Assembly (NCBI GenBank): GCA_039801225.1
Contig: JBDRUH010000043.1
Span: 1-13,516 of the forward strand
DNA: 13,516 nt
Direction of reading: 5' to 3'
Origin: a candidate division WOR-3 bacterium
GTDB lineage: Bacteria > Hydrothermota > Tepidihabitantia > Tepidihabitantales > Tepidihabitantaceae
Below are positions 2,555-9,181 of this stretch, in pieces. The translations under genes and the position numbers were made by a program. The notes under the pieces are model-generated. The model did no database searches, was not told the origin of the DNA, and worked only from the letters and a program-made list of their open reading frames with translations. The first letter of the stretch is position 1. Every line of letters begins with the position of its first letter.

Positions 2555-4363
2555 GTGAATAAAAAAGGGCTGCTCTTAATATTGGGCGGTATTGCTGCGC
2601 TAATTGTTTCCCTCGGCCTGAAATGCGGGACTGGTCCACCGAAAACGCCAGTTATCGTTTATGCCCCGGAGTCAACCTGGTTTAAGGCAACGACCCCGAT
2701 CAAGGTTTTCACCACCGCACCAAAGAATAAGGATATTCGTTATGTGGCCGATTTAGGTCAGTCCGATGGTAAAATGGATACTTCGGATGTTCTTCCCAGC
2801 GGTGATACCGTATACATCTATCCCAAGTGGACTCAACTGGGCAATTTCAAATTCAAGGTTGCTGCTTTTTTAGATGAAAATCAGGCAAAAATTTCCGAGT
2901 TCTCCAAGGAGAAAAGTATCCGCGTCCTGCCTAACAGTCCGCCGGAAAGTATCTGGATATATGCCCCATCTGTCTTAGCCAAAGATGTGTGGGAATATTT
3001 TTATGTCAGTGCGGTTGACCCGGAAGGAGATTCAATCACCTTCTACTTTGACTTTGGTGATGGGAAAAAGGAGTGGGTGGATACCCTTATCGCCTCGGGT
3101 GAGACACTTACTTACGCCCATAAATACACGAAAGTTGGCAATTTCTGGTTAAAGGTGAAGGCACGAGATAAAAAACGCACCGAGAGTGAACCGGAATCTA
3201 TTCAGGTTACTGTTGGCACCGCCGGTAAAGTCAAGTGGTGGTTTGTGAATAATGCCGAGGAGGAGTTACCGCCGGTGGCTTCGCCGGTCGTGGCAATTCC
3301 TGGCGACACATGGATTTACACCTATTGTGGTGATGGACGTTTCTATGCGGTGAATTATTCTCAGGGGAAAACAAGAGCCTCGGCAATCGCCCTGGATACA
3401 TTCCGCGACTTCTGCGGTCATCCAGCCTACTGTGCCAGCCAAAGGCATATCCTCATTGGTGAAGAAGGGGGATATCTCCATAGCCTGCGGGTGGAAGATT
3501 TGGCTCGCGTCTGGTATTGGAACACCCCGGAAACCACCGACCTTAGCACCCCGGCGATCAATGGTAGTTACATCTATATCGCTTCGGGAAAGGACACGCT
3601 CTACTGGCTAATTGACCAAGGCAGTACCTGCGTGGAGAGCGCCGCCTACAAACTCCCCGCCGGCTTAGAGGCACCGGTTATCGACCGTTCCGGCAATGTC
3701 CTCTGTGCCCTTGACAATGGTATTCTCTATAAGATGCCGCCGGACCTGCAGAATCCGGTCTGGGAATGCACCTTAAACCTCGGTGTTTCACTTCTGCCAC
3801 CGATTATCGGCGATAACGGAATGATATATGTTGCTGACGATTCCGGCTATGTTTATGCGGTCCGAGAAGATGGCAGTAAGGCTTGGACCGCTTTAGGCAA
3901 TGCCGGCGATATCGGCGGAATGGTTCTTGGCACCAGGCTGTTTGTTACCACCAGTTCGGGTAAGTTAATCGCCCTCAGTCCAGAAAATGGCAGTAAAGTG
4001 TATGATAAAAAAGTTCATCTGATCAGAACCCCCAACCTCATTGGCTCACCGCTCCTCGCTACCAATGGCTACATCTATTTTATGGACGACGACGAAATTC
4101 TCTATGCTGCCCAACAGTCCACCGGCGATGTTATCTGGTCGGCCAACTGCCTTGAGCAGGTTGAGGGCGGTGTTCGCTGCCACCATCCGAGGAGGCTTGC
4201 CGAACTGATGGAACCGAGTCTGACGATAGGTCCTTCGGGTAACATTATTGTCGTCGGTTCATCTTATATGTACTGCGTCCTCGGCGAAACCGATAAAGTG
4301 CTTGACGAGGCCGCCCCCTGGCCGAAGTGGCAAAAGGACCTTTTCAACACCGGGAAGAAATAA
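2555..4363 (+). CDS. Probable lipoprotein with Ig/PKD-like domains and a PQQ-like (BamB-like) beta-propeller
   Basis: GTG start with SD GGGAGG. Hydrophobic N-terminus ending in Cys (SLGLKC). PKD-like AVDPEGDSITFYFDFGDG...HKYTKVGNF. Propeller blades such as PPIIGDNGMIYVADDSGYVYAVREDGSKAW. C-terminal APWPKWQKDLFNTG closure motif. Confidence 0.8.
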   Translation: MNKKGLLLILGGIAALIVSLGLKCGTGPPKTPVIVYAPESTWFKATTPIKVFTTAPKNKDIRYVADLGQSDGKMDTSDVLPSGDTVYIYPKWTQLGNFKFKVAAFLDENQAKISEFSKEKSIRVLPNSPPESIWIYAPSVLAKDVWEYFYVSAVDPEGDSITFYFDFGDGKKEWVDTLIASGETLTYAHKYTKVGNFWLKVKARDKKRTESEPESIQVTVGTAGKVKWWFVNNAEEELPPVASPVVAIPGDTWIYTYCGDGRFYAVNYSQGKTRASAIALDTFRDFCGHPAYCASQRHILIGEEGGYLHSLRVEDLARVWYWNTPETTDLSTPAINGSYIYIASGKDTLYWLIDQGSTCVESAAYKLPAGLEAPVIDRSGNVLCALDNGILYKMPPDLQNPVWECTLNLGVSLLPPIIGDNGMIYVADDSGYVYAVREDGSKAWTALGNAGDIGGMVLGTRLFVTTSSGKLIALSPENGSKVYDKKVHLIRTPNLIGSPLLATNGYIYFMDDDEILYAAQQSTGDVIWSANCLEQVEGGVRCHHPRRLAELMEPSLTIGPSGNIIVVGSSYMYCVLGETDKVLDEAAPWPKWQKDLFNTGKK

Positions 4364-4385
4364 AATAGTTCATAGTTTTAAACCG

Positions 4386-4420
4386 GCAGGGGCGAGCTGA
4401 CGCTCGCCCCTGCTTGACTT
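4386..4420 (+). terminator. GC-rich hairpin, probable intrinsic terminator
   Basis: Perfect 12-bp stem GCAGGGGCGAGC-TGAC-GCTCGCCCCTGC 22 nt after the stop codon. The T-tail is weak (TTGACTTT). Confidence 0.65.
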
Positions 4421-4441
4421 TCTGGTGATTAGCGGTAATGT
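4414..4441 (+). promoter_or_regulatory. Putative promoter for the PPIase cluster
   Basis: TTGACT (4414-4419), 16-nt spacer, TAATGT (4436-4441). Confidence 0.4.
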
Positions 4442-4447
4442 TTGGCA

Positions 4448-5752
4448 ATGCGTTTTTCTCTTATCTTAACAATTTTACTGCTCACGCTTAACTGCACCCG
4501 TGGCCCGTTACCGGTTGCTTGGGTGAACAAAACGCCAATTTTAGTTGAGGAGCTAGCACGTGCCCTGCCCCAAGGGTTTGAGTCAGGTAAAGAGACAATC
4601 GTTGTCCGGGAGTGCCTTGAGGAGTTAATTAACCGGGAGTTATTTATTCAGGAGGCGGAGCGCCAGGGACTGGACTCCTGCATCACCTATCCACTGGAAC
4701 TGGAGAAGAAAGGGTTGGTTATCTATGAGCTTTTTGCTCAGGTGGCGGAGAAGGCACAACCGGTTACTGAGCAGGAGTTAAAAAATGCCTATGAACTTTT
4801 GAGTGAGGAGGTGCATTGCCGGATGATAGCAGTCCGAGAAAAGAGCACCAGCCAGCAACTTTATCAGGAACTCTGCCAGGGAGCGAATTTTGAAACCCTG
4901 GCGGTTCGCTACTCAATCCACCCCAGCCGGACTAAGGGCGGTGACCTCGGGTATATTCCGGAATATTATATTGAGGAACCGTTGCGCAGTGCGGTGGTTG
5001 GTCTGAAGCCGGGTGAGTTTACCAAGCCGATATTTTTTGACTCCAGTTACCAGATTGTCCTCTTGATTGACCGCCGGCCGACATCTCCCCCATTGCCCCC
5101 ATTTCTTGAGGCAAAACAGCAACTGAGTGAGCAGATAAAACTTTGGCGACGCCGGCGCGCTGCGAATGAATATGTGCAAAATCTCCGGGAGCGTTTGGTT
5201 TATAATCCAGCCGGGTTGGCGATATTTTATAAGCCGGTTGACTCCATCACAGAGGAAGAGAAAGAAATCTGGGTGGCGATCCGCGACCAGAAGAAATATG
5301 TCAAAGTCGGGCGACTGCTCCATATTGCCCGGCGTTTCCCATTAGGGCTGGATACCGCCATCCGCACCTACGCTATCAAACGGGCGATTGAGGATGACCT
5401 GATGTTTGAAGATGGGCTGAATCTTGGATTAGATAAGGCACCAAAGGTCAAGGAGCAACTAAAAAGGCTTAGACGCAAACTGCTTTACGAGACCCTGTTC
5501 AACCGATTGGTTGTTGAGCAAGCGGTAGTTACCGATTCGGAATGTTTTGCCTATTATCAAAATCACCGCGAGCGCTACCCAAAAGAAGAGTATGCGGCAG
5601 TTGCTCCACTTATCCGGAACCATCTCCTCCTGGAGCGTCAGAAGATGCGGCAGAACGAAATTTTAACCGAGTTACGCTCCCGGGCAAAAATTACCATTAA
5701 TCAAAAAGTTCTAAAACGGGTGTTAACTAACCTATCCAAGAAAAGGAGTTAA
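4448..5752 (+). CDS. PpiC/parvulin-type peptidyl-prolyl isomerase / foldase (probable lipoprotein)
   Basis: MRFSLILTILLLTLNC signal. SurA-N-like LEELINRELFIQEAERQGL. Parvulin GANFETLAVRYSIHPSRTKGGDLGYI...LKPGEFTKPI. ATG 4448 preferred over TTG 4442. Confidence 0.85.
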   Translation: MRFSLILTILLLTLNCTRGPLPVAWVNKTPILVEELARALPQGFESGKETIVVRECLEELINRELFIQEAERQGLDSCITYPLELEKKGLVIYELFAQVAEKAQPVTEQELKNAYELLSEEVHCRMIAVREKSTSQQLYQELCQGANFETLAVRYSIHPSRTKGGDLGYIPEYYIEEPLRSAVVGLKPGEFTKPIFFDSSYQIVLLIDRRPTSPPLPPFLEAKQQLSEQIKLWRRRRAANEYVQNLRERLVYNPAGLAIFYKPVDSITEEEKEIWVAIRDQKKYVKVGRLLHIARRFPLGLDTAIRTYAIKRAIEDDLMFEDGLNLGLDKAPKVKEQLKRLRRKLLYETLFNRLVVEQAVVTDSECFAYYQNHRERYPKEEYAAVAPLIRNHLLLERQKMRQNEILTELRSRAKITINQKVLKRVLTNLSKKRS

Positions 5753-5753
5753 A

Positions 5754-6578
5754 ATGAAAAAAATATGGTTTATTTTTCTTTTTCTTCTCGGCTGCACGAA
5801 AGAGCCGCTTCATTCACCAAAGGGCACGGCTGTCGGCACCATTAACGGCGAGCAGATTACCGCGCCACAGGTTGACTATGCTGCCGGGCAACTCCGGATA
5901 GAAGTTTCGCCAACAAATCTACCCAAACTCCTTGACCATATGGTTGCCGTCTCGGTCTGCGCTCAGGAGGCGGTGCGCCAGGGGATGCTTAAAGACGAGA
6001 AGGTAGTCTCCGGACTTGCCTGGATGGAAAGGATGTTTCTTGCCCAGGAACTCCTCAATCGGCTAACTGATACATTAGTACCTTCCTTGAGTGAAATTGC
6101 CACCTACTTCTCCGAGCATCGTGATCAGTTTACCTGGGGGTTAAAATTAAACCTTATGGTTCTACCCGATTCAGTTTTAGCTGAGCAGACACTTAATGAA
6201 CTCAAATCGGGTGGCAACTTCGTCCAACTGGCAAAAGAGCGGTCATTGGATACTTCAGTAATCAATCTTCCTGGCTACCCTACCCGAGGGATTGGGATGT
6301 CATTGGGATGGAGTTTGGCGGACGAAGAGATGGTATTTGACTTAGCGCCTGGTGCGGTGTCAAAAGTGATTCCCACGCCGGTTGGTTATCAGTTGGTGAA
6401 GGTTGTGGATAAGAAACGGATTACCGATAGCCCTTCACTTAACGAGATGACCCAGTTTTATATTTCCGAGGCGCTCAAAGCCCAAAAACGCCAGTTGGTA
6501 ATGAACCGCCTCTTAGACAGTTTACGCCAGAGTAAGAAAATCGTGTTAAAGCCCGAAGCCTATCAGAAACGACAATGA
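5754..6578 (+). CDS. PpiC-type foldase lipoprotein (degenerate parvulin domain)
   Basis: SD AAGGAG. Lipobox LLGC. GGNFVQLAKERSLD...VFDLAPGAVSKVIPTPVGYQLVKV. Confidence 0.8.
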   Translation: MKKIWFIFLFLLGCTKEPLHSPKGTAVGTINGEQITAPQVDYAAGQLRIEVSPTNLPKLLDHMVAVSVCAQEAVRQGMLKDEKVVSGLAWMERMFLAQELLNRLTDTLVPSLSEIATYFSEHRDQFTWGLKLNLMVLPDSVLAEQTLNELKSGGNFVQLAKERSLDTSVINLPGYPTRGIGMSLGWSLADEEMVFDLAPGAVSKVIPTPVGYQLVKVVDKKRITDSPSLNEMTQFYISEALKAQKRQLVMNRLLDSLRQSKKIVLKPEAYQKRQ

Positions 6579-7870
6579 CAGTAAGGGGAAGGTTTTTGGC
6601 TTTTGGTTTTTGGCTTTTGGTTTTTGGCTTTTGGCTTTCGGCTTTTGCTAATATTGCCGACCGGATTGTGGCGGTTGTCGGCGATAAGATAATCCTAAAG
6701 AGTGAAGTGGAACAACTTGTGACTTTCGTCCGACTGTCAACTGGGGATACATTGACTCCTGATTCAATTCTTCAAGAAGAGGCGCGGCGTCGTCTTATTG
6801 ACGAGGCGCTGCTCCAGACGGAGGCAATCCGGGAGTCGGTAGAAGTGGGTCGGGATGAGATTGCAACCGAGGTGGCAAAAAGCATCGCCTCACTAAAAGA
6901 GCGATTTGAGTCGGAAGAGGAGTTTGCCGCAGCGCTGGGCGAGGAGGGGCTTTCAGAAAAGATGCTCAAGGAGCGGATTGGTGAGGAGGTGCGAAAGAAT
7001 CTTTTAGCCCGACGACTCTTAGAAAAAAAGGGACTGATGCAGATTTATATCTCGCCCGCTGAGGCGGAACAGTTTTATAATGAGCATAAGGATTCCATCG
7101 CTTTTCTGCCCGGTAGAGTTTCCTTAGCCCATATCCTCATTCCTATTACACCATCAGAATCGGCCGAGGCTGAGGTCCAGCGTCGAGCCTGGGAGGTAAT
7201 TGACCTTCTCTCCCGTGGTGGCGATTTTGCTACCTTAGCCCGCTCCTTTTCCGACGACCCGAAAACCAAAGAGAGGGGCGGGGACTGGGGGTTTAGAAAC
7301 GAGGAGGAAATTCCTCTTGATCTAGGGATGGTTCTAACCCAACTTAAACCCGGGCAAATCTCACCCCCCTTCCGCACTCAAGATGGCTATCTCATCGCTA
7401 AACTTGAAGCGCGGGAAAAAAAGCGGTGGCACTTCCGAACGATTCTTTTCTCCCTGAAAACAACTCACACCGACACCGTTCGTGCCCGTCGGCTCGCCCT
7501 GTCAGTAAAAAATAAAGCGCTCAGCGGCGTTCCTTTTGACTCACTGGCGAAACTATACTCCGCCGACCCTGAGAGCAAAAAATCGGGCGGTTATCTCGGG
7601 CAGTTTTTTCTTGAAGGTTTGACCCCGCCCTTTGATAAGGTGATTGCCGGAATGGACTCCGGAGATATCAGCGACCCGGTCCTTTCTGAGCACGGCTTCC
7701 ACATCATCAAACTCCTCGCCAAAGAGCCAGCACGAACCCTTAGTTTCCTGGAAATCCAGGATGCTATCCGGAACTACCTATACCAAGAGCGGTTTACCGA
7801 GCGTTTGCGCCAGTATCTTGACCGAATTGAGCGAACGGTCTATGTGGAGATTAAAAAAAACGACAATTAA
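6575..7870 (+). CDS. surA: SurA-like periplasmic chaperone with two parvulin domains
   Basis: ATGA overlap with the upstream stop. DRIVAVVGDKIILKSEV SurA N-terminal motif. Two rotamase domains (HILI...DFATLARSFSDD...GGDWG; FDSLAKLYSADP...GGYLG...GFHIIKL). C-terminal YVEIK. Confidence 0.85.
   Translation: MTVRGRFLAFGFWLLVFGFWLSAFANIADRIVAVVGDKIILKSEVEQLVTFVRLSTGDTLTPDSILQEEARRRLIDEALLQTEAIRESVEVGRDEIATEVAKSIASLKERFESEEEFAAALGEEGLSEKMLKERIGEEVRKNLLARRLLEKKGLMQIYISPAEAEQFYNEHKDSIAFLPGRVSLAHILIPITPSESAEAEVQRRAWEVIDLLSRGGDFATLARSFSDDPKTKERGGDWGFRNEEEIPLDLGMVLTQLKPGQISPPFRTQDGYLIAKLEAREKKRWHFRTILFSLKTTHTDTVRARRLALSVKNKALSGVPFDSLAKLYSADPESKKSGGYLGQFFLEGLTPPFDKVIAGMDSGDISDPVLSEHGFHIIKLLAKEPARTLSFLEIQDAIRNYLYQERFTERLRQYLDRIERTVYVEIKKNDN
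6591..6646 (+). repeat. Eight tandem heptamers GG(T/C)TTTT within the signal-peptide coding region
   Basis: GGTTTTT GGCTTTT GGTTTTT GGCTTTT GGTTTTT GGCTTTT GGCTTTC GGCTTTT. Confidence 0.9.
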
Positions 7871-7877
7871 TTTTTTC

Positions 7878-7905
7878 TTGACTTACTTTCTAAATAATAG
7901 ATAAT
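7878..7905 (+). promoter_or_regulatory. Putative promoter for the FG-GAP gene
   Basis: TTGACT (7878-7883), 16-nt spacer, GATAAT (7900-7905) in an AT-rich gap. SD AAGGAGG at 7914-7920. Confidence 0.5.
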
Positions 7906-7924
7906 AACAGCAAAAGGAGGCTTT

Positions 7925-9181
7925 ATGCAAAAAGGCACACTGTTTGTTATTATCGGACTGTTATTCTCACTGGGCTTCAGTCTGGAACTCCGTTTTAGCG
8001 GTCCTTCGCCAGTTTATGATGGCGGTACCCCGATTGATGTTGGCAACTACGGAGCACCGGTGATAGCCGACTGGAACGGCGATGGCAATAAAGACCTCAT
8101 CTGCGGTCAATTCACCAATGGCAAAATCCGGTATTACGAAAATATCGGCGCCGACACCGCGCCGGTTTTTAATGGGTTTGAGTTCCTTAAAGCGGATGGA
8201 GTGGAGATTGAACTCCCTTATGGTTGATGTGTTGGTTCTACTCCACAGGTTGTGGATTGGAACTCTGATGGTGAGTTAGATGTCGTTTCTGGTGACCGCG
8301 AGGGCTATTTCAATGTCTTCATCCGGCAGGGGGGTGAACTTACCGGCTACTATCAATACAAACTTATGGATTCCACCGTTCTTAAGGTTGACGCCAACTC
8401 CCATCCGGCGGTCATCGACTGGAACGGTGATGGTAAAAAGGACTTAATCCTCGGTTCCCAGACCGGCTATATCTACTTCTACCCCAACCAGACAAGCGAT
8501 ACCTGGCCGATGTTTCAGGACTACTCTTATCTGGAGGTCCGTGGTTCGCCCATCAACCGTTATCGGGTAAACCCATACATATTTGACCTTGACCGCGACA
8601 CCATTTATGACTTAATCTGCGGTGCCGATGATGGCTATATCCTTTTTTATAAAAATGTCGGCACTAACGCTACGCCGGTTTTTCTCTTCCCGGAGACCCT
8701 GAGAGCCACTGACGAAACACCGATTCAGCCCAGCCCAACCTCCTATGGCTCGCGCTGCGCCTTCGGCTATTGGAACTCCGATACCCTTCCCGACTTTCTC
8801 CTCTCGGGTTATGACGGCACCGTGGACTTATACTTAGGAACTTCATTGGTCGGCACCGAAGAACCTCTTTCCACCTTAGAGGTTTCTTGCCGGCTGTCGG
8901 TTACCCCAATACCCGGAAGACCACCAGTTCGCATTCAGTTTAGTCCGGTTCTCCCTCAGGAGGTACAGCTAATAATCACCGATGTTTCCGGAAGGAAGGT
9001 TCGCACCGTTATCCTTTCACCTTGCCAAAGTGAGTTTGTCTGGAATGGGATAACTGACCAGGGAACCAAGGCGAATTCCGGTGTTTACTTTTGTGGGATA
9101 AAGCGCCCCTTAAACCGAAGCGAAAAAAACGGTGGAGGTAATAGCCCAGTTTGGACGACGAGAATTGTTTTAGAGAAGTGA
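7925..9181 (+). CDS. Secreted FG-GAP/VCBS-repeat protein with FlgD-Ig/T9SS-type C-terminal domain; candidate selenoprotein (in-frame TGA 8225-8227 read as Sec101; 418 aa)
   Basis: ORFs 7925..8227 and 8252..9181 share one frame. Readthrough gives ELPYG-U-CVGSTPQVVDWNSDG and completes the second of five D/YW(N/D)xDGxxDLxxG-type repeats. Signal peptide at the N-terminus. C-terminus has ITDVSGRKVRT...VWNG..DQG....SGVYF. Confidence 0.8.
8234..8264 (+). promoter_or_regulatory. Candidate bacterial SECIS hairpin
   Basis: GGTTCTA-C-TCCACA-GGT-TGTGGA-T-TGGAACT: 13 pairs (two G-U) with one C/U mismatch. The apical loop GGU begins after a 20-nt spacer from the UGA. Confidence 0.75.

Follow-up and report, generated by a model that had tools for sequence, protein, structure and literature searches.

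A UGA-interrupted gene of a candidate division WOR-3 bacterium very probably encodes an exported selenoprotein with a predicted five-bladed FG-GAP propeller

The stretch of DNA considered here (below, the window) comprises 13,516 nucleotides (nt) of contig JBDRUH010000043.1 from the draft assembly GCA_039801225.1 of a candidate division WOR-3 bacterium, and it carries on the forward strand a reading frame that is interrupted by a single TGA codon. Under the bacterial code (table 11) the locus gives two open reading frames (ORFs), 7925–8227 and 8252–9181, while with TGA translated as selenocysteine (Sec, U) the frame stays open for 418 codons from ATG 7925, residue 101 being U (TGA 8225–8227) and the next residue Cys102, and closes at the terminal stop TGA 9179–9181. 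The original prediction, made from the letters of the window, joined both ORFs into one selenoprotein gene with Sec101 in a G-U-C motif, and this proposal is supported by conservation of the TGA among homologues, by a hairpin next to it and by the Sec machinery of the same genome. According to these data 7925–9181 is very probably one gene for an exported selenoprotein, its internal UGA most likely specifying selenocysteine (Table 1).

The elements on which the prediction was built are present in the window as described. The string running from TAT GGT TGA TGT to GAT TGG AAC lies at 8219–8263, 317 sense codons follow the TGA when it is translated as U, and the lead-in peptides GAPVIADWN, SHPAVIDWN and VNPYIFDLD, to which the peptide after the TGA had been likened, all occur in the joined translation. 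The GTG at 8252 has no Shine-Dalgarno sequence, as the preceding TTGGTTCTACTCCACAGGTT contains no GGAGG, unlike the region ahead of ATG 7925, and by sequence and RNAfold it is indeed buried in a stem. It had also been expected that gene callers would split such a gene, and fragments of about 290–300 amino acids (aa) in the protein library have residue 110 of the joined protein as their very first residue; library proteins P0015, P0026, P0027, P0045 and P0057 have this start.

Table 1. Features of the selenoprotein locus in the window (positions are those of the window)
Feature	Position	Strand	Basis or remark
Promoter-like site, TTGACT, 16 nt, GATAAT (candidate only)	7878–7905	+	Consensus scan, 10/12 matches
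Shine-Dalgarno sequence AAGGAGG, 4 nt ahead of ATG 7925	7914–7920	+	Sequence reading
Predicted selenoprotein gene, 418 codons and terminal TGA	7925–9181	+	Replaces table 11 ORFs 7925–8227 and 8252–9181
Probable signal peptide, residues 1 to ~22, MQKGTLFVIIGLLFSLGFSLEL	7925–7990	+	Basic start, then hydrophobic stretch
Five FG-GAP-like repeats, residues ~23–312, predicted five-bladed beta-propeller	7991–8860	+	Pfam, model
UGA most likely read as selenocysteine (Sec101)	8225–8227	+	TGA at matching column in homologues
Cys102 codon, vicinal Sec-Cys pair of the G-U-C-x-G motif	8228–8230	+	Homologue alignment
Putative selenocysteine insertion sequence (SECIS) hairpin	8234–8264	+	Lower stem 8234–8240 with 8258–8264; mismatch 8241/8257; upper stem 8242–8247 with 8251–8256
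GTG, codon of Val110, taken by gene callers as start of the second ORF	8252–8254	+	Within 3' arm of the hairpin
C-terminal beta-sandwich, residues ~322–418, probable type IX sorting domain	8888–9178	+	Pfam FlgD_ig

Homologues were searched in 61 related genomes, the own genome included, with TGA read through. A match was found in 30 of them, as full-length homologues with one in-frame TGA; 43 of the 47 match rows contain exactly one such codon, the remaining four being weak or incomplete matches. In the best loci, one per matching genome, the TGA stands at the column of residue 101 in 30 of 30 cases, within the motif G-U-C-[VMQI]-G, which is followed by ..P[QR]VVDWN[SA]D in 27 loci and by AIAVCDWN[EN]D in the remaining 3. 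Identity to the window protein ranges between 32 and 62% among these loci (70% for one partial copy), Cys102 is invariant in the alignment of 29 homologues, and the terminal stops of the homologues are TAG, TAA or TGA, like those of ordinary genes.

A wider scan, in which each species was represented by a single genome, gave at least 504 encoding stretches, from which 79 loci on named contigs were retained. TGA occupies the Sec column in 78 of their 87 gene copies, a share biased upward because the contig scan used peptide patterns from just after Sec; in L122 the TGA lies a few residues off in the alignment, and the pattern x-U-C is present in 75 of the 78 Sec copies. The family spreads over about ten phyla, its lineages including Stahlbacteria, Aegiribacteria/Fermentibacteria/Sabulitectum, Phycisphaerales, Victivallales, Verrucomicrobiota, Planctomycetes, Gemmatimonadota, KSB1, Calditrichaceae, Cytophagia, Desulfuromonas, Nitrospirae/Thermodesulfovibrionia and Dehalococcoidia. 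Among the loci several variants were observed: the motif reads G-C-U-G in L131 (Victivallales) and Y-U-C-C in L116, and G-U-Q/L-G without the Cys in L107, L125 and L122 (Nitrospirae/Thermodesulfovibrionia). Five tandem family copies lie on one strand in L071 (JANQEH010000279.1), each with TGA at the Sec column, and two Sec copies each are found in L067, L078 and L093.

The prediction named homologues with either TGA or Cys at this column as support, and only the former part stands well: the TGA is conserved, but exchange between Sec and Cys is rare, with A-C-Q-G in L089 against G-U-Q-G in L107 as the one clear case, within the G-U-Q-G subtype. Instead, L112, L117, L126, L127 and L136, as well as library protein P0098 (430 aa), have Gly at the Sec column and retain the next Cys. 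Because the non-Sec homologues mostly keep this Cys and have Gly before it, the Cys appears to have been functional first, and Sec seems to have arisen next to it, as the pairs Gly-Cys and Sec-Cys of the homologues suggest. If true, the placing of Sec beside an older Cys would be another route to selenocysteine than the usual replacement of Cys.

The second element of the prediction was a 13-pair hairpin behind the UGA. Folding of 8225–8275 with RNAfold returns these 13 pairs (7 + 6 around a 1x1 mismatch) at −15 kcal/mol, with GGU at 8248–8250 as the apical loop, separated from the UGA by 20 nt. The bacterial SECIS (bSECIS) model, as given in PMC13188914 (section 5), has a loop of 3–9 nt, a stem of 4–16 base pairs, a G in the first two loop bases, a spacing of 16–37 nt and a minimum free energy of −7.5 kcal/mol or lower. 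The window hairpin, with a loop of 3 nt, an upper stem of 6 base pairs, G as the first loop base and a spacing of 20 nt, fits this model in all four respects, and its −15 kcal/mol compares with the limit of −7.5 kcal/mol. Since the fold is not beyond chance in one sequence, its significance comes only from the comparison of homologues.

For this comparison 102 distinct Sec sequences were available. In 90 of them the stem is coded as CCN-CNN-NNN-GNG-G, and in all 90 the third base of the Pro codon, a synonymous position, pairs with the second base of the Val, Ala or Glu codon without a single mismatch, the pairs being A-T (74), G-C (10), G-T (5) and T-A (1). Ala (GCG) always goes with Pro CCG (10/10) and the single Glu (GAG) with CCT. 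A further 10 sequences code A[IV]AVC instead of SPQVV and have another stem, [AG]TCGC...GCGA[TC], shifted by one base, and the last two, of Nitrospirae type, form yet another one. In the alignment of 30 sequences 80% of the cells are paired in the named structure versus 25–52% when the partner is slid by 1–3 columns. Codon choice in 30 genes served as an internal control and points the same way: at the stem Pro position 27 of 27 codons are CCA, which makes up 109 of 663 Pro codons overall (16%) and 2 of 24 where this peptide motif recurs in other blades, and at the stem Val position 27 of 27 are GTG, versus 355 of 993 overall (36%). The compensatory changes that had been proposed as a check are thus found, with pairing in 90 of 90 by four pair types, and, as judged by these changes together with the constrained synonymous sites, the hairpin is kept by selection as RNA. 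Of the eight non-Sec homologues, six (L112, L117, L126, L127, L136 and L138) have no such hairpin, whereas it is kept in L089 and in the second copy of L087; in the latter both Sec and Cys are lost (G-E-T-T-G).

The machinery for selenocysteine insertion, which the original prediction advised to look for, is present: selA, selB, selC and selD are all found in the own genome, an assembly of 1.50 Mb in 72 contigs with 88.8% completeness. The scores are 571 bits for selA, 381 bits for selB and 359 bits for selD, and the tRNA-Sec with 74.6 bits carries the anticodon UCA (ARAGORN tca), all above the curated cut-offs. As to the genetic code, the assumption that it is standard proved correct: among the 684 frames of the own genome that stay open for 300 codons or longer, 208 end in TGA, as do 4 of 12 ORFs of the window. 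Only one of 42 tRNAs, the tRNA-Sec, has the anticodon UCA, and that of tRNA-Trp is CCA; because TGA is an ordinary stop and the sole UCA tRNA is tRNA-Sec, a reassigned code is rejected. A second selD (G000 C5:25243–26151, L017) was observed next to selB (C5:26205–28073). Its frame contains a TGA within C-A-G-U-A-S-K, and 22 nt behind this codon stands a hairpin, GCGC-AGUUG-GCGC; by these marks of its sequence the second selD is itself a predicted selenoprotein. The selD located on C39 is free of TGA.

The letters of the TGA itself were followed in public sequence data, as confirmation in reads had been recommended. Contigs of three public runs from two studies (X1, X2 and X8) have the TGA unchanged at 8225–8227, and run X5 does not cover the UGA site. 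Although its label is metatranscriptomic, run X8 carries a flag of probable DNA, and its contig, spanning 8151–8301, was therefore not taken as expression. Because the TGA is conserved widely and unchanged in independent runs, a nonsense mutation or a sequencing error is excluded as its origin.

The public metagenome contigs break at 8208–8295, where the summed depth approximately doubles (run X1), and short contigs across 8219–8274 differ at 3–5 bases; the stretch of the Sec site and hairpin seems to be nearly identical in co-occurring relatives, fragmenting the assembly graph. In run X1 one contig links 8097 to 8501 and omits 403 bases, its shorter side having only 24 letters, and this is probably a mis-join of similar DWNGDG repeats or DNA of another organism. 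A terminator-like hairpin rich in G+C at 8144–8166, followed by TTTTTAAT, lies inside the gene about 60 nt before the UGA and overlaps the codons of a conserved G-x-D-x-A-P-x-F motif; as a terminator it was rejected, such hairpins being at chance level in the region (3 found versus 2.2 expected). The promoter-like site at 7878–7905 likewise remains only a promoter candidate, because such sites are about as many in the region as chance gives (3 found versus 2.4 expected in the consensus scan).

The simplest alternative would be that the TGA is a true stop, in which case the locus would give a 100-residue secreted peptide and a 309-residue protein from GTG 8252, or the downstream part would not be made. 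Exactly these two ORFs result from table 11, the public gene calls include the proteins of about 290–300 aa from residue 110, and a lone hairpin of this kind is within chance; nevertheless, the GTG without a Shine-Dalgarno sequence would have to start translation from inside a stem, and in 30 of 30 relatives the frame is conserved through the eight codons that separate TGA from GTG, with an invariant Cys and Gly among them. A second ORF used by itself would also have a secretion tail without a signal peptide, the propeller, modelled as one chain, would be incomplete without blade 1, which the first ORF supplies, and non-Sec homologues such as P0098 are single uninterrupted proteins, all of which makes two genes very improbable. 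It is similarly improbable that the UGA is translated as a standard amino acid (Gly, Trp or Cys) by a reassigned code or near-cognate read-through. For Gly it could be argued that TGA means Gly in NCBI table 25, that Gly occupies this column in P0098 and in five non-Sec homologues on the named contigs, and that TGA and GGA are one base apart. However, TGA serves as a stop throughout this genome and in the window in the proportions given above, there is no tRNA-Gly or tRNA-Trp with the anticodon UCA, which belongs to tRNA-Sec alone, and the members of the family contain one in-frame TGA apiece, never at another site. Besides, a compensated hairpin beside the codon is a need of SelB-dependent recoding and not of a code change. 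A pseudogene, i.e. an ordinary FG-GAP gene with a recent nonsense mutation or an error of sequencing or assembly, would be consistent with the single in-frame stop, as expected of a fresh one, and with a draft genome of 72 contigs and 88.8% completeness, but this is hardly credible in view of the same TGA in 102 distinct sequences of many phyla and in contigs of three runs from two studies, of strong residue conservation past the TGA and of an ORF free of further stops or frameshifts.

Selenocysteine insertion therefore remains the favoured explanation of the UGA, and some facts weigh against it. In the window sequence by itself the hairpin is within chance (z −1.75, with 16 of 200 shuffles folding as well), and L089 is the only one of 8 non-Sec homologues on named contigs that has Cys at the Sec column; the upward bias of the contig scan belongs here too. 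The co-occurrence of the family with the Sec machinery barely discriminates, because selA is found in 57 of the 61 relatives, and one of the other four (G058, 76% complete) has the gene, yet no selA, selB or tRNA-Sec was found in it. In G022 the gene is present and selA was not found, selB and tRNA-Sec being present, while G013 and G039 have neither clear machinery nor the gene. Among public runs recorded as RNA none has this stretch.

The joined product has the marks of an exported protein of repeated structure. A signal-peptide-like hydrophobic N-terminus was seen by eye in all 29 aligned homologues, the AlphaFold2 model has a helix at residues 2–14, and an N-terminal signal peptide is accordingly probable. 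The following part matches Pfam FG-GAP_3 with 54.4 bits versus the cut-off of 26.9, as do 29 of 29 homologues; one of the FG-GAP_3 matches spans residues 111–175, and DxDxDG-type loops recur in each of the five repeats. AlphaFold2 with the homologue alignment gives a single chain with a mean predicted local distance difference test (pLDDT) score of 87.2 and a predicted template modelling score of 0.70, and the pLDDT is 94 and 86 in the blocks across the junction, including 91–110. In this model Sec101 lies in the loop 97–105 that leads into the strand 106–110.

Residues 21–312 of the model were compared with 48,161 chains by VIA-align, and the best results are five-bladed propellers (GH43, GH62, GH32 and GH130) with Z of 15–19.3 and root-mean-square deviation of 3.0–3.9 Å; the superposition covers 230–259 residues at 6–14% identity and indicates likeness of shape, not of function. 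The five-bladed match agrees with the five DxDxDG-type repeats in the sequence. Foldseek against PDB gave only generic propellers (integrin alpha, CRTAC1 and BBSome; template modelling scores 0.31–0.40) and no functional lead, and the search of representative proteins was dominated by giant multi-repeat FG-GAP proteins. According to the profile matches and a confident model, the product consists of a probable signal peptide, a predicted five-bladed FG-GAP propeller and a probable C-terminal sorting domain.

The last of these parts bears on the export route. Among 29 homologues FlgD_ig matches 17, Por_Secre_tail 8 and CHU_C 4, and the genome contains a SprA-like translocon frame of 1877 aa with 443 summed bits versus the cut-off of 200. 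From such sequence matches export by the signal peptide and then by a type IX-like system is likely. This route is weakened by the tail of the window protein, which exceeds the FlgD_ig cut-off of 27 only barely (27.9 bits) and has no Por_Secre_tail match in Pfam, and by the best PorV-like match of the genome, with 65.7 bits versus the cut-off of 250.

The genomic neighbourhood is that of envelope housekeeping, with three genes like those of peptidyl-prolyl isomerase (PPIase)/SurA, a BamB-like gene, pdxJ, secD, secF and pgpA in the window. Directly upstream (2555–7870) lie the BamB-like gene, encoding a pyrroloquinoline quinone (PQQ) propeller, and then the PPIase/SurA-like genes 4442–5752, 5754–6578 and 6575–7870; downstream follow pdxJ, secD, secF, pgpA and a CinA-like gene. 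A SurA-like gene also stands ahead of the homologue in L062. No partner gene is shared across taxa among 138 flanking ORFs of the 79 loci, where the neighbours are specific for lineages (Methyltransf_11 five times, DUF362 three times and SurA once, with a sixth methyltransferase neighbour of a different best family at L076), and this deprives the proposed function of a clue. Paralogues were not found in the own genome, which has only tail-domain or weak repeat matches.

According to the proposed mechanism, the recoding part of which is borne out by the comparison of homologues, the ribosome would arrive at UGA 8225–8227 while SelB with Sec-tRNA(Sec), the charged tRNA being provided by selA, selB, selD and tRNA-Sec of the same genome, would bind the hairpin 8234–8264 by its GGU loop 20 nt downstream; Sec would be inserted as residue 101 and translation would continue to the stop 9179–9181. 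The protein would then cross the inner membrane by the Sec pathway and be passed outward by the type IX-like system. As known from integrin structures, the innermost strand of each blade in FG-GAP-type propellers is entered from a loop on the face that surrounds the central axis, and five-bladed propeller enzymes have their active sites on this face. Sec101 and Cys102, in the loop into the innermost strand of blade 2, may similarly be situated near the propeller axis, a placement of Sec101 that follows from strand order. The pair, as the putative functional centre, might form a redox-active selenenylsulfide or a site for soft metals or chalcogens outside the cytoplasm. Such a role is favoured because known Sec/Cys pairs form a selenenylsulfide or bind soft metals, but by analogy with them it is only a possibility, to which we give clearly less than even weight.

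In the broadest interpretation, which is put forward tentatively and which we hold to be somewhat doubtful, the family may be among the most widely spread bacterial selenoprotein families still uncatalogued, formed by exported five-bladed propellers instead of thioredoxin-fold enzymes and serving in many lineages as cargo of the type IX system, with chemistry of a Sec-Cys pair at the propeller mouth taking place at or beyond the cell surface and with Sec placed beside an older Cys. It would then take part in redox, chalcogen (sulfur or selenium) or soft-metal chemistry in anaerobes of hot springs and sediments.

The family appears to be undescribed as a selenoprotein and is absent from the catalogues that were checked. 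NCBIfam release 20 gives no selenoprotein model match but only a weak FlgD-like one (16.2 bits). The 2026 catalogue in PMC13188914 (Table 1; 119 families and subfamilies) includes no FG-GAP, VCBS or propeller protein, and the main texts of BSepDB (PMC13326102), PMC13188914 and deep-Sep (PMC12013277) contain no mention of FG-GAP, VCBS, propeller, integrin or the type IX secretion system. The covered part of the BSepDB supplement has no match either, a result of low weight. Literature searches gave nothing relevant linking selenoproteins with FG-GAP, with type IX secretion or with beta-propeller and SECIS together, the matches listed for the last pair being all eukaryotic SELENOP or general reviews. 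Probably overlooked because the protein library holds C-terminal fragments starting at residue 110, a family that gene callers split in this way is invisible to surveys of selenium use, despite its about ten phyla and at least 504 loci. Catalogued bacterial selenoproteins are mostly redox proteins, many of them with the thioredoxin-like fold, according to PMC13188914 (section 7); with an exported propeller that bears Sec next to Cys, selenium use extends to further scaffolds and compartments, and there is a defined target for asking what selenium does extracellularly where habitats are anoxic, sulfidic or hot.

In comparison with known systems, the window protein resembles the FG-GAP/VCBS propellers of Pfam PF13517 and PF01839 (integrin alpha head, CRTAC1 and bacterial VCBS proteins) in its FG-GAP_3 and FG-GAP matches and in the DxDxDG-type loops. 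It differs from them in having five repeats only, whereas integrin propellers have seven blades, and in an extra L-P-x-G-U-C-x-G insertion before blade 2 that carries the Sec. The five-bladed GH43, GH62 and GH32 proteins are alike in fold, but there is no glycoside-hydrolase Pfam match at E ≤ 0.01. Thioredoxin reductase ends in GCUG, the Cys-Sec pair being penultimate at the flexible C-terminus of a flavoenzyme. Adjacent Sec and Cys are also known from the CopZ-like 2Fe-2S protein (GxUC) and the MerB-like SaoL (CU), as listed in Table 1 of PMC13188914. With these three the window protein shares a vicinal Sec/Cys pair flanked by Gly, and family member L131 even has G-C-U-G, as thioredoxin reductase does. 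However, the order in the window protein is U-C and not C-U, the pair is internal, at residues 101–102 of 418 in a predicted propeller loop, and there is neither a flavoprotein domain nor a ferredoxin-like or MerB fold. The window protein is also predicted to be exported and shows no sequence relation to any of the three.

The recoding mechanism is the standard bacterial one. As in Escherichia coli fdhF, a UGA is accompanied by an in-gene stem-loop whose small apical loop contains G and U and lies at the modelled distance, and selA, selB, selC and selD are present. The window stem has no known relation in sequence to that of fdhF, and its loop has only 3 nt. A further difference from fdhF is that the codons of PQVVDWN, the best conserved peptide in the FG-GAP repeat, also form the hairpin, and, as a consequence, the constraints on protein and on RNA overlap. 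The family is a clean example of dual coding, where a change in the stem brings a change of amino acid, Val to Ala together with CCA to CCG and Val to Glu together with CCA to CCT.

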